This document shows, in pieces, positions 15,001-18,000 of a stretch of 45,637 bases of DNA. Origin of the DNA: a virus (Duplodnaviria > Heunggongvirae > Uroviricota > Caudoviricetes). Within the stretch, counting starts at the first letter, position 1. Each line of letters begins with the position of its first letter. The DNA lies in the IMG/VR virus record IMGVR_UViG_2529292910_000009, positions 1 to 45,637 of that record; one strand, given 5' to 3'. The position numbers are program-made.

Positions 15001-18000
15001 ATATCGATATAAGGCATGGTTATCTGGTATCCGAAAATTTGAATGGCAGACGAGGTGGAATAATTAATCCCGGCACAATTTCACGACGTCAACCCGTACA
15101 GGAGTCGCTCTTACCGCCCGTCCACATGCAGGGAATTCGCAATGTTCGGCGAAAATGGCATCGTAAATGAAGCATGTAATCGCGCACGGGAAAAATATGG
15201 ATTTCCAAAAATCTGAATATTCTCCGCCGTGCAAAAATGCGAACAACATCACTTCACTAATCAGCCTGATATGGCATACTTAGCACGCCAACTATGATAA
15301 CAAACTAATACCCTAAAACTCATTACATCGGGACTGGCCGTGGTCCCGTTTTTTTTATTCAGCCAGCAGGCCATCCGACAACATAACTGCGGATCGCCTT
15401 CAGGTCTGTCAGCGCCTCAACCTCGGCTTTCATCTGCAACTGCCGTGTATTAATCTCCACTCCCTTCGCAAACATCGCTAGCTCTGTCGCTTCACTCAGT
15501 GCCATCAATGATGCTGCCGTCATTGGCACATCATTATTATCAGCATCCGTCCGGAAAAATTTCTCTGGCAACTTAAAACAATATCCTATATATCCGGCGT
15601 CTCCGGTATGTAGAACGTGAAGTTTTTAAAATTATTCATTTACCATTTAACTAATTTTTAGATCCTGGGGTACTCCCGTCTTTTTCATTGCCTCCACGAA
15701 AGCGGAACTAACAGAACCTGACCAGTAATACTGGAACCCACTAACAACGCCCTGATAAATCATGGTTTGTGTAGCACCACCTACGTTTACGGTGATGTTA
15801 CCTGCTTTACCACCGGCTAAATAAACAGCAGCTGTCGGTGTAGAGTTCGTCAAAAAGTGAGAAAGTGTAACGACAGCCCCTACCAGCCTCCCTGATCCGC
15901 AGCTTGCGGCGTTTGTAATTGTACCTTTACTTTTTCTTCTAAAGGCCAGTCAGCGCCAACTGCGCCCCAGTTATCAACCTTGTCAGAGGATTTCCATTTA
16001 TAGTACTCAGTTGCAATTTTACAGCCCATAGTTCGCCCAACCATTTGGCTCATCATAAAAGGTTTACTCAGTCCCAGTTTGGTTCCGGCGGCTCCCATCC
16101 ACTGCTCACCTGTTTCGCTCTTAGCCGAAGAGCCTACCCATCCCGATGTTACCCCCATCTCATCTCCCCCTTCTGAATGCGTGGGGTGAGTGTCACCCCA
16201 CAATTTAAATTCAGTAGAAACCAGAAACTACAACAGCTGTCGTTTACTTCTCCCGGAGTTCTTTAATCTCATGACGAAGTGTTTTAAAGCCCTCGACTAA
16301 CAATGCAATTATGCCGTTGTAGTTAAGACGCAGACGTTTTTCACCAGATATAACGTCTGCGTCTTCAGTTACCAGTTCAGGCAATGCTTTTTGTGCATCC
16401 TGAGCAATTAAACCAACCGACGTTTGCCAACCGTCGGCAGAGTACTGTATCTCGTAAAGATAACCAGTAAGTGCCTCCAGACGATCTAACGCATTATCCA
16501 GTTTTACCAGATTTCGCTTGTTGCGTTTATCCGAACGGATCTGAACATCGTTAAATGAGCCGTTTCCGGTCACCGTCAAATTGCCATTAATACCACCATT
16601 AAAAGTTTGTGCCTGAGTCCATGTATTGGCAGTAGTAAGCAGTTCTGTTCCTTGCCCGGGGGCTCCAGTGTCTCCCTTCGGTCCCTGTGGCCCCGCCGGA
16701 CCTGCTGGTCCAGCCACTCCCGGATCACCTTTATCGCCTTTCGACCCCGGCGCACCTGCCGGACCTGCTGGTCCAGCCACCCCCGGATCGCCTTTGTCAC
16801 CTTTTGGCCCCTGTGCGCCTGCCGGGCCTGCTGGTCCAGCCACCCCCGGATCGCCTTTGTCACCTTTTGGCCCCTGTGCGCCTGCCGGGCCTGCGGCTCC
16901 CGTATCCCCTTTCGGTCCCTGTGGGCCTGCCGGACCCGTATCGCCCTTGTCTCCCTTCGGGCCGGGAACGCCACCACCTGCAGCAACCTCTTCTGCCTTC
17001 TGTCTCGCCGCCTTGGCCTCATCCATTGCCGCCTTCACAGCCTTCGACGTGGCAGCCTTTGTTTCGTCATTACTGGCAGTATCACTACTTAGCTGCACAA
17101 TTCCCTTCTGTGCCGTCGTCGCGTCCACCACATTTGCTGCGCTGCCCGCCGGACCAGGCTCCCCGCGGGGGCCCTGAGGCCCAGCTTCGCCTCGTTCACC
17201 TTTCGGACCTGCCGGACCTGTCGCACCGGCATCTCCTTTCGGTCCCTGCGGCCCCGCCGGGCCTCTCTCTCCTGCAGGTCCGCGTAGCCCCTGCTCTCCC
17301 TGAGGCCCTCGTTCTCCCGGCTCACCTTTTTCACCTGCGGGACCGGCTGGTCCGGTGTCACCTTTAGGTCCCGCATCACCTTTCGGCCCGGGTGGTCCCC
17401 CCGGGTCTCCGGGGGCTCCTTTTTCACCTCTGGCCCCGGTTTCACCTCGTGGACCAGCAGGCCCCTGAATCCCCCGCTCTCCTTGCGGCCCCACCGGTCC
17501 TGTTTCACCGCGTGGTCCTTGTGCGCCTTGTGGACCTGTTTCTCCACGAGGGCCTGCATCACCTTTCGGTCCGGTATCACCTTTAGGGCCTCTGGCATTC
17601 TCTGCCATACGCCTGGCCTCTTCAGCACTAACCGTAGCAGCCTCAGCACGTTTAAGAACGTCTCCGGCGGCCTCATGAGCCACTCTGGCGGTTTCAGCAT
17701 GTTGTCTGGCATCATTCGCGTCTGCTGCCGCGGCCTTTTCAGACTCGCATGCCCGGGTCGCCGCTTCTGCAGCTTCACTGGCTTTTTGTCCGGCTTCAGC
17801 CGCCCTGCTGGTTGCCGTCTTTGCACTGTCAGATGCACTCTTCGCACTGGCTGCTGCACTGTCTTTTGACTGTGTGGCCTGAGTGTTTTTTGTCGCCGTG
17901 TCTTCATTCAGGCGACGAATAGTGGCAAGGTCATCAGCCACATTATTCTGTATCTGCCGGAAATCTGTCAGCAGTTCTCCGGGTATGCTCACCTCAACAA

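Follow-up and report, generated by a model that had tools for sequence, protein, structure and literature searches.

The 341-nt gap at 15018-15358 in the late operon of this prophage is most probably a recombination scar that contains no dedicated transcription unit. Coordinates are those of the window, that is, the whole 45,637-nt stretch of DNA that was analysed. The element that hosts the gap is a defective Shiga-toxin-type (short-tailed Stx-phage-like) prophage, which strains such as 23CRST047 and NMBU-W12E19 also carry. On the plus strand, the gap is made up of a 3' fragment of a ykgJ paralog, a conserved non-coding block of ~125 nt and an intrinsic terminator, while the opposite strand carries a tail-fibre-assembly gene (tfa) reduced to its 3' third. 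The terminator most probably descends from the 3' end of a ykgJ-like gene, now decayed, and from a lambda-like prophage end, and moved together with a tail-fibre cassette.

A preliminary description of this DNA had reported, between two tail genes of the minus strand, a strong plus-strand terminator preceded by a promoter-like element, and the sequences it quoted were found at the coordinates it gave. Our scans and folding with ViennaRNA located an intrinsic (Rho-independent) terminator motif on the plus strand at 15329-15356, in which an 8-pair hairpin is followed by T8. The stem (CGGGACTG/TGGTCCCG) spans 15329-15348 and comprises five G-C, one A-U and two G-U pairs around a 4-nt loop, with a predicted energy of -11.0 kcal/mol (ViennaRNA). 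On the plus strand, the T8 (15349-15356) abuts the stem; the minus strand, on which A8 comes before the hairpin and AUGUAAUGAG after it, has no such T run. Since no A-tract lies 5' of the hairpin, a minus-strand transcript would have no U-tract. Both sequence features that define an intrinsic terminator, a GC-rich stem of 5-12 pairs and an immediate U run, are present. A scan of the region from 10 to 28 kb returned 51 terminator-like sites, this one among them, compared to 18.1 +/- 4.7 in shuffled sequences. A stricter scan of the whole window returned 17 strong sites, compared to 1-6 per simulation in 20 Markov simulations, and the site at 15329-15356 has the longest T run of the 17. The hairpin and T8 are one of the best intrinsic-terminator motifs of the window, and the strand-specific terminator of the preliminary description is present beyond chance expectation.

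In all copies that we recovered, the hairpin sits 10 nt past the stop codon of tfa. Its stem is invariant across the aligned E. coli prophage variants; copies of the type found in phage 1720a-02 have a different, 7-bp stem. The T run ranges from T6 to T10 in other copies of the window type and is shorter in the 1720a-02 type. The 1720a-02-type copies of the non-coding block were recovered by regex extraction; blastn with the block on the same loci gave none. A search of one-genome-per-species contigs with the exact hairpin pattern returned 0 matches. A looser 15-base hairpin pattern gave mostly chance matches in unrelated phyla, of which only the IMG/VR matches from enterobacterial isolates were usable.

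The left side of the gap contains a junction between unrelated sequences. The downstream neighbour of the gap in the late operon is a minus-strand gp67-like gene of 541 aa (13392-15017 in the ORF list), the equivalent of gp67 ("internal virion protein") of phage P13374, which matches phrog_511 with E=1e-277. DNA identity with P13374 is 92% as far as 15049, where homology of the P13374 type ends, and the stretch at 15018-15049 is the leader upstream of the gp67-like gene that is common to Oslovirus-type Stx phages. It is followed by a 55-nt junction filler (15050-15104). The filler was present in 17 of the 5,426 complete E. coli genomes, once in each, 100% identical and always at the same junction. 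Its similarity to ykgJ is at chance level only, and we rejected an extension of the ykgJ homology into 15050-15104 on that basis. Stx phages of the P13374 type lack 15050-15529 and have, at the same spot, nothing but ~50 nt left over from the ykgJ 3' end, for which the alignment score was reached by 0 of 500 shuffles.

Comparison with intact genes and the RefSeq annotation identified 15105-15216 (plus strand) as what remains of a ykgJ paralog carried by phages, a 3' fragment that is now a pseudogene. Homology begins within codon 59 of 109, the final 33 codons are kept to the stop (TGA, 15214-15216), and an internal deletion has removed ~14 codons relative to ES5-type copies. DNA identity to the intact 109-aa prophage genes is 93-99%. 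The product of the intact prophage gene matches PF03692 at 46 bits and has 81% identity with K-12 YkgJ. The fragment has lost the N-terminal CxxCxxCC motif as well as its start codon and native promoter. In a 100%-identical locus (L001), RefSeq lists 15115-15216(+) as a pseudogene, "YkgJ family cysteine cluster protein, missing N-terminus". Pfam searches with the 50-aa conceptual translation of the remnant and with a 38-aa ORF at 15167-15283 gave no match. Given that it has no start codon, no cysteine cluster and no Pfam match, the remnant is a pseudogene fragment and not a member gene of the YkgJ family. Prophage-borne DNA of the ykgJ region has been described as chromosomal in origin (Nakamura et al. 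2021, PMC8112680). The remnant has its homolog in the YkgJ-family gene (109 aa, PF03692 CxxCxxCC) that lambda-like prophages carry at their tail-fibre end, and is related to the ykgJ-ecpE-derived segment of lambdoid prophages (attB-in-PP_2 region, PMC8112680). It differs from these in that only the 3' part is present, with the internal deletion; the upstream ykgJ-ecpE-like segment, a published secondary attachment site (PMC8112680), is absent; and the remnant lies in the middle of the tail cluster of a short-tailed prophage instead of at a prophage end.

On the minus strand, a DUF4376 tfa gene truncated to its C-terminal 70 codons (15359-15571) converges with the ykgJ fragment. RefSeq lists 15359-15574(-) of the 100%-identical locus as a DUF4376 pseudogene, missing N-terminus. 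The remnant scores 29 bits on PF14301 over profile positions 55-99 of 106, which is not a full-length domain, and it matches PHROG tail-fibre families by its C-terminal part only; the full-length homolog in ES5 has 202 aa and scores 62 bits. Homology to P13374 picks up again at ~15528-15530, and a spacer and a gp66-like tail-fibre adhesin gene, assigned by phrog_1121 and P13374 homology, occupy 15530-16203 on the minus strand. The adhesin gene is split here (15647-15853 and 15880-16203) and matches phrog_1121 in two pieces, whereas contig L023 has it as an intact 185-aa ORF. The adhesin region belongs to a 1.7-kb cassette common to lambda-like prophage ends: ~1.7 kb (15118-16831) is 98.5% identical to such ends in the IMG/VR contigs L023, L029, L034 and L036.

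Intact layouts elsewhere run DinI-like(+), ykgJ(+), hairpin, and then tfa(-), tail fibre(-), Lom(-) and J(-), and they adjoin potB, tRNA-Ser or yecD. In this native context, the elements form the outermost end of lambda-like (long-tailed, J/Lom-bearing) prophages, whose late operon ends with tfa and whose plus-oriented cargo genes (DinI-like and ykgJ-like) converge on tfa. The hairpin and T run are the sole terminator between the cargo genes and tfa in these prophages. In one locus (L008), the hairpin is the sole terminator-like site 3' of an intact ykgJ-like gene.

According to our model, the native role of the terminator would be to keep inward transcription from entering the tail-fibre genes antisense, whether it originates in the cargo genes, in host read-through across the attachment site or, when the phage is circular, on the integrase side. 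The gap between tfa and ea47 in phage lambda contains no terminator-like site, so that this insulating role rests on gene arrangement only. The shared sequence suggests that a 1.7-kb receptor-binding cassette, comprising the tail-fibre C-terminus, the adhesin, the tfa remnant, the terminator and the ykgJ 3' end, recombined into the short-tailed Stx-phage-like prophage. The right crossover would lie within the collagen-like tail-fibre gene. The left one would be an illegitimate junction inside ykgJ, joined by the 55-nt filler to the gp67-like leader, and would have deprived ykgJ of its native promoter and of its 5' two-thirds. At its present location, the hairpin would have no dedicated transcript of its own and probably still stops stray plus-strand transcription. 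Late transcription in lambdoid phages is Q-antiterminated; because of this, and because the minus strand would have no U-tract, the hairpin should be harmless to late expression. Prophage mosaicism of this kind is already well established. The locus would record the exchange of a receptor-binding cassette between long-tailed lambda-like and short-tailed Stx-type prophages, with non-coding flanks dragged along and the ykgJ relic kept even in canonical Stx2 phages such as P13374, which is relevant to the way host range modules spread from one Shiga-toxin phage to another.

The preliminary description had placed a promoter-like element with a near-consensus -35 (15039-15066) at the head of a possible ~280-nt transcript (15037-15356). 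A promoter created at the junction would produce a plus-strand RNA of ~285 nt ending at 15356, which might encode a residual ORF of 24 codons (ATG at 15142 to TGA at 15216); we regard this model as very improbable. TTGAAT (15039-15044) matches the -35 consensus TTGACA at 4 of 6 positions, and TAATTA (15061-15066) matches the -10 consensus TATAAT at only 2 of 6 and does not have the final T. Thousands of sites in the window are equally good by this measure. In a weight-matrix scan, the proposed promoter scored 3.3 bits and ranked ~4,034 in the window, which is chance level. Sigma-70 promoters are recognised by hexamers like TTGACA and TATAAT, a spacing of 16-18 nt and the A2 and T6 of the -10 element, and 15039-15066 does not conform to this. 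The sequence can also be read as TTGAAT-14-AATAAT with an upstream TG, where TGGAATAAT at 15056-15064, inside the filler, resembles an extended -10 element. This alternative, the best re-reading, ranks 179, yet its spacer is 14 nt and the TGNWATAAT motif occurs 3 times in the window, compared to 3.25 expected. Neither version was listed by a consensus promoter scan.

The position of the proposed promoter across the junction also argues against it. The -35 hexamer falls in the gp67-like gene leader and the -10 hexamer in the filler, and of the two only the -35 region is present in phages of the P13374 type. As the -10 region is known only from the 17 identical copies at one junction, its conservation lends no support. 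In favour of a promoter, the gap is richer in AT (44-46% GC) than most of the gp67-like gene (~47-58%, falling to ~44% at its 5' end), and AT-rich acquired DNA favours spurious promoters. The start codon of the residual ORF is preceded 7 nt upstream by a Shine-Dalgarno-like AGGGA and is in frame with the ykgJ C-terminus; however, as described above, neither the conceptual product nor the 38-aa ORF gave a Pfam match, and folding of the plus strand at this site, as a single sequence, was no better than that of shuffles (z = -0.25). We infer that the proposed promoter is a fortuitous sequence spanning a recombination junction, and the ~280-nt unit is not supported. Nor does the terminator call for a new transcript, being accounted for as the module that ends the ykgJ-like gene and the lambda-like prophage. 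With a leftover gene end and a promoter no better than chance, the arrangement becomes an ordinary one.

The two further plus-strand terminators reported in the late operon, at 22697-22733 and 24843-24870, are both present. The former has an 8-bp stem (CCGCCAGC/GCTGGCGG) and a 13-nt loop followed by C and T7 (-15.1 kcal/mol), and the latter an 8-bp stem followed by T6 (-15.8 kcal/mol). The first closes a probable sRNA locus of the PasC/PasA family (22619-22733, plus strand), with a -35 box TTGACA at 22619-22624, that lies antisense to the late operon between the stop codon of the esterase gene and the DUF1378/holin genes. In E2348/69, too, the esterase and holin genes lie on the other strand from PasA and PasC (Pas sRNA coordinates were taken from Pearl Mizrahi 2021). 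The locus, a probable positional homolog of PasC and of the long form of PasA, shares with them the -35 box, the GCCAGC/GCTGGC stem with T7 and an ATTATGC flank; the body of the RNA aligns poorly. The second ends a stretch (24690-24870, plus strand) that is 94% identical over 182 nt to E2348C_1409.E2348C_1408.IGR of EPEC E2348/69 and retains both the terminator and, just before it, the seed CCUUGCC. That EPEC sequence, of the EcOnc08/21/42 family, is an Hfq-associated candidate from RIL-seq with 37 interactions and the target motif GGCAAGG (Pearl Mizrahi 2021 supplements), and 24690-24870 is, by sequence homology, the counterpart of this experimentally detected sRNA candidate. Convergent with it is the sRNA STnc100 (24871-25032, minus strand; Rfam RF02076, 76.8 bits compared to a gathering score of 47). 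The idea that plus-strand terminators here mark small plus-strand transcripts thus holds, by homology, for these two sites and is not supported for 15037-15356.

That the operon's other two plus-strand terminators belong to known sRNA families speaks against the scar reading, and so does the conservation of the non-coding block that precedes the main terminator (15233-15328, plus strand). The block and hairpin were found in 58 of the 5,426 genomes, always adjoining a DUF4376 tfa. O104:H4 and 55989 have the block at the end of a lambda-like prophage, in the order ykgJ, block and tfa. In prophages that have ykgJ, the block is its 3' UTR; in lambda-like prophages it lies between the convergent tfa and the prophage end. 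It persists where ykgJ is absent or decayed, as in ykgJ-less prophage ends at ompW, yecD, tRNA-Ser and zinT. Among close relatives, the block is 97-99% identical, compared to 88-91% for the flanking tfa and 93% for the ykgJ coding sequence. Because it is more conserved than the flanking coding DNA and persists without ykgJ, the block may have a function of its own. We consider it possible, albeit unlikely, that block and terminator together (15233-15356) form an unrecognised functional element, either a short gene for an Hfq-type sRNA or an insulator of the tail-fibre genes. If so, the element would be kept at the tail-fibre end of lambda-like prophages regardless of ykgJ and integration site, and would have been brought intact into this Stx-phage-like prophage; an insulator would shield the tail-fibre genes from inward transcription.

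As an sRNA gene, the block would express a plus-strand RNA of ~50-70 nt from an internal promoter, ending at T8 and acting in trans with Hfq, like other prophage sRNAs antisense to late genes. We regard this as unlikely. The two best promoter-like sites of the gap are both inside the block: ATGGCA-16-TATGAT at 15271-15298, a sigma-70-like site with 9 of 12 matches, and TTCACT-16-CATACT with an upstream TG at 15253-15280. The former is retained in most E. coli copies and would yield an RNA of ~50 nt, which counts against the scar reading; however, the sites rank 117 and 159 in the window and are of ordinary strength, and the most divergent copies lose the -10 (TATACC or TATATC in the 1720a-02 type). 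The long U-tail is typical of Hfq sRNAs, but there is no U-rich stretch immediately 5' of the hairpin and the 1720a-02 type has a weak tail, CCCCCATCTTTTT. The known anti-sRNAs AsxR and AgvB are similarly short (51-60 nt) and antisense to late genes (Tree 2014). Nevertheless, searches with Rfam 15, whose families include AgvB, AsxR, STnc100 and isrK, gave no family at the main site at the gathering threshold over the whole window, and the best E value over 14900-15700 was 0.7, to an unrelated Listeria family. Fourteen variants of the block, folded together with RNAalifold, had only 4 terminator pairs in common and showed no covariation. The 58 carriers include no O157:H7 or E2348/69 genome, for which Hfq CLIP/RIL-seq maps are published. 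A sigma-54 reading of the invariant TGGCA...GCA in the block was rejected by inspection, given that the GG-to-GC spacing is 8 nt and not 10.

The hairpin might instead be kept for the minus-strand late mRNA, as a 3' stabilising stem-loop or a processing site after the tfa remnant. Its fixed distance from the tfa stop codon and its ability to form in the minus-strand RNA as well would fit such a role, which we nonetheless judge extremely unlikely. The long T run of the window-type copies is kept on the plus strand only, suggesting that termination on this strand has been selected for; the minus-strand fold is no better than shuffles (z = -0.62); and tfa is here a pseudogene fragment. Inheritance from the ykgJ-like gene and the lambda-like prophage end remains our preferred origin of the hairpin.

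Compared with known systems, the GC-rich stem and immediate T8 between the ykgJ-like gene and tfa resemble the terminators shared by convergent gene pairs, but this hairpin is unidirectional and its upstream gene is truncated and promoterless. As a plus-strand terminator in a minus-strand late operon, it also recalls the antisense prophage sRNAs PasA/PasC, EcOnc08/21/42 and AsxR/AgvB (Tree 2014; Pearl Mizrahi 2021; Zhu 2026 preprint). The main site differs from these in that it has no sequence or structure match to them, lies in the tail region and not in the cargo-insertion region downstream of Q/pR', and has a pseudogene explanation. A wrong-strand terminator in a phage late operon can mark the end of a real sRNA, as at the two other sites here, or be the fossil remainder of a cargo gene whose 3' end outlasted its decay, and the two are told apart only by comparison with intact relatives. 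Membership of the lambda tI/sib or b-region terminators is not supported: the hairpin has no sequence relationship to tI/sib, other genes lie between att and the hairpin, and tRNA-Ser integrants have another terminator there too. The likeness would be a loose analogy in orientation, as tI/sib, beyond attP, faces the same way with respect to integrase-side transcription across attP. The order in phage 1720a-02 is int(+), DinI-like(+), ykgJ relic(+), hairpin and then tfa(-).

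The DNA belongs to a lambdoid prophage of E. coli, with the late genes on the minus strand. Over the tail region (11202-15049 and 15528-16924) it shares 92 to 93% identity with the short-tailed Stx2 phage P13374 (Sepvirinae, Oslovirus), and from Q to the lysis genes it matches a non-Stx O104:H4 prophage at 99.9% identity. The terminase, portal, and capsid genes of the O104:H4 relative are missing from the window, which makes the prophage defective, and an adaptor/structural-protein-like ORF carries a fused fragment of the portal protein (18280..19155; 18524 onward). By colinearity with the annotated O104:H4 prophage, a plus-strand cargo gene within the minus-strand late region (19861-20442) codes for an Ais-like lipopolysaccharide core heptose(II)-phosphate phosphatase; opposite-strand units are therefore not unusual in this late operon.

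The gap under study (15018-15358, 341 nt) is flanked by a 541-amino-acid gene equivalent to P13374 gp67 (13392..15017, minus strand) and a 70-codon ORF (15359..15571, minus strand). Sequence comparison shows it to be mosaic, combining a pseudogene fragment of a ykgJ-like gene, a conserved end block that includes a terminator, and part of the tail-fibre-assembly gene tfa, all evidently inherited from a lambda-like prophage end. On a 100%-identical locus (strain 23CRST047), RefSeq annotates two pseudogenes: "YkgJ family cysteine cluster protein, missing N-terminus" (15115-15216, plus strand) and "DUF4376 domain-containing protein, missing N-terminus" (15359-15574, minus strand). DNA of the ykgJ region in STEC prophages has been described as being of chromosomal origin, with an upstream ykgJ-ecpE-like part that serves as a secondary attachment site (Nakamura et al. 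2021, PMC8112680); unlike in those prophages, this attachment part is absent from the window. Since both pseudogenes are in RefSeq and prophage ykgJ-derived DNA has been published, the finding at this site is already known and ordinary.

In the intact layout, seen in lambda-like prophages at potB, tRNA-Ser, or yecD, a ykgJ-like gene of 109 codons is convergent with a full DUF4376 tfa, beyond which lie the side tail fibre, Lom, and J. The 109-amino-acid protein scores 46 bits against PF03692 (CxxCxxCC) and shares 81% identity with the chromosomal YkgJ of K-12; at the DNA level, homology with the chromosome is confined to the coding region and excludes the flanks. Of the ykgJ-like gene, only the 3' part survives in the window. 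Homology begins at GTCGCTCT (15105), a deletion follows 15113 relative to the copies in ES5-type prophages, and the reading frame of the last 33 residues ends at 15216. This remnant is without the cysteine cluster, start codon, and native upstream region, and is thus a fragment rather than a member of the YkgJ family. The 70-codon tfa remnant (15359-15571, minus strand) matches phrog_15942, a family of exactly such a 70-amino-acid product (E=8e-49), and is 98 to 100% identical in adhesin-type and window-like IMG/VR contigs; it may be an annotated, even expressed, small protein.

P13374 homology breaks off at 15049 and picks up again at about 15528 to 15530. The 55 nt at 15050-15104 have no detectable relative, and a screen of 5,426 complete E. 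coli genomes found them in only 17, as a single identical copy at this junction each time. The stretch 15118-16831 shares 98.5% identity with lambda-like prophage ends in IMG/VR contigs, in which the order is DinI-like gene, complete ykgJ, block, hairpin, tfa remnant, adhesin, tail-fibre C terminus, Lom, and J. This identity indicates a common 1.7-kb receptor-binding cassette, along with which the noncoding and pseudogene flank came. ES5-type prophages share the left junction, but their tfa is complete. P13374 itself carries an approximately 50-nt relic of the ykgJ 3' end at the same position, in the 84-nt gp66-gp67 spacer (6095-6178 of our P13374 locus); it scored 29, compared to a maximum of 17 in 500 shuffles, and its closest allele is that of phage 1720a-02. 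The relic suggests that scars of the recombination event are widespread in Stx phages. Within the cassette, the gp66-like tail-fibre adhesin gene (minus strand) is broken into two ORFs (15647..15853 and 15880..16203) that lie in different frames. The gene is whole in one IMG/VR prophage end (L023, 185 amino acids) and annotated as an intact 513-nt coding sequence in the 99.5%-identical RefSeq locus, and the split copy is probably a frameshift pseudogene.

The preliminary description had proposed a plus-strand unit ending in a strong terminator, and as a motif this terminator is genuine: all the quoted sequences lie where described, and the hairpin at 15329-15348 (8 pairs, 4-nt loop, -11.0 kcal/mol) is followed immediately by T8 at 15349-15356. 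Terminator-like sites are more numerous than expected by chance in the region from 10 to 28 kb (51, compared to 18.1 ± 4.7 in shuffles); a stricter definition gives 17 in the window, compared to 1 to 6 in simulations, and the site in the gap has the longest T run. It is strand specific, since on the minus strand A8 precedes the hairpin and AUGUAAUGAG comes after it. In strain S1-CAM-01-A, the hairpin with T8 is the sole terminator-like site between an intact ykgJ-like gene and tfa. The element is predicted to act as any intrinsic terminator shared by two convergent genes would.

The "near-consensus" promoter did not hold up. TAATTA matches TATAAT at 2 of 6 positions and is without the last T, a critical position of the -10 hexamer. 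The site was unlisted by a consensus scan and ranked about 4,034th in the window by weight matrix. The best alternative reading (TTGAAT-14-AATAAT, TG upstream) relies on a 14-nt spacer, and TGNWATAAT is no more frequent than chance, at 3 occurrences compared to 3.25 expected. The proposed -10 element also falls in the 55-nt stretch at 15050-15104. We therefore consider a 285-nt plus-strand unit starting at this junction highly improbable.

The block, about 125 nt from AAAAATG (15233) to the T-run, is carried by 58 of the 5,426 genomes and in all of them lies immediately downstream of tfa, also at prophage ends without ykgJ (ompW, yecD, tRNA-Ser, and zinT). The last five codons and stop of the phage ykgJ are unlike those of the chromosomal gene, and part of them, AAAATCTGAAT, recurs at ykgJ-less ends, which suggests that the block probably predates the capture of ykgJ. 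Among close relatives, the block (97 to 99% identical) is better conserved than the tfa 3' end (88 to 91%) and ykgJ (93%); among distant ones, it diverges about as much as tfa. A second family, of the phage 1720a-02 type, keeps AAAAATG, TCACTTC, and TGGCA, with a stem of different construction (7 bp) and a weaker T-run.

The conserved block may have a function of its own. Its conservation and the sRNA-type terminators elsewhere in the late operon would favor a short sRNA produced from within the block, which we nevertheless regard as unlikely. RNAalifold on 14 block variants recovered only four shared terminator pairs and no covariation, the site matched no RNA family in Rfam, and single-sequence folds of both strands were no better than shuffles. 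The best promoter-like sites in the gap do lie in the block (ATGGCA-16-TATGAT, 15271-15298, rank 117; TTCACT-16-CATACT, rank 159), are of ordinary strength, and are only partially conserved. A role of the hairpin on minus-strand mRNA is the least probable reading; T-run length varies from T6 to T10 among otherwise near-identical window-type copies (L020, L023, L031, and others), and the kept T-run favors plus-strand selection. An analogy to lambda tI/sib was rejected because lambda has no terminator next to tfa.

The terminator is instead likely an inherited prophage-end element, stranded in midoperon without its own promoter. In its native place it would end plus-oriented cargo genes and, more generally, keep inward transcription from entering the tail-fibre genes in antisense. 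Among host genes, potB and yecD, for example, read towards the prophage end, and phage 1720a-02 has its integrase, its DinI-like gene, and its ykgJ relic all directed at the hairpin. In the window it should leave late expression unhindered, because the minus strand is without a U-tract and lambdoid late transcription is antiterminated by Q.

The two further plus-strand terminators of the preliminary description, at 22697-22733 and 24843-24870, fare better, one by sRNA homology and one by position. Along its entire length, the plus-strand segment 24690-24870 shares 94% identity with a 182-nt Hfq/RIL-seq sRNA candidate of EPEC E2348/69, E2348C_1409.E2348C_1408.IGR, and retains both the seed CCTTGCC and the terminator. 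The candidate has 37 interactions, the target motif GGCAAGG, and the stated EHEC homologues EcOnc08/21/42 (Pearl Mizrahi 2021). The 3' end of the segment abuts that of Rfam STnc100 (24871-25032, minus strand), forming a convergent sRNA pair downstream of Q/pR'. The other locus, 22619-22733 (plus strand), lies between the esterase stop and the DUF1378/holin genes. PasA and PasC of E2348/69 are transcribed at the equivalent position from the strand opposite the late genes; a TTGACA -35 box, the GCCAGC/GCTGGC stem with T-run, and the flank are common to them and this locus, whereas the RNA body has diverged. It is a probable sRNA locus of the PasC/PasA family. A class of sRNAs transcribed antisense to late genes close to pR' has been described (Tree 2014; Zhu et al. 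2026 preprint). The adjoining esterase gene, a nanS-p-like SASA-family sialate esterase, is split (22739-23665 and 24056-24649, minus strand) and differs by 44 nt in length from the intact O104:H4 copy.

Other RNA elements were detected elsewhere. isrK (69 bits) and C4 antisense RNA (66 bits) stand in tandem at 28043-28266 (minus strand), and the strongest sigma-70-like site of the window, TTGACA-18-TATATT, lies directly upstream at 28266. A hok/sok module is represented by its sok antitoxin RNA (117 bits; 30102-30276, minus strand), and sRNA-Xcc1 by a match of 69 bits (287-375, plus strand). Finally, IMG/VR contig L026 is 99.97% colinear with 14999-25625 and then jumps straight to 43758 (through 45637), so that about 18 kb of early/regulatory region (25626-43757) is absent from it.
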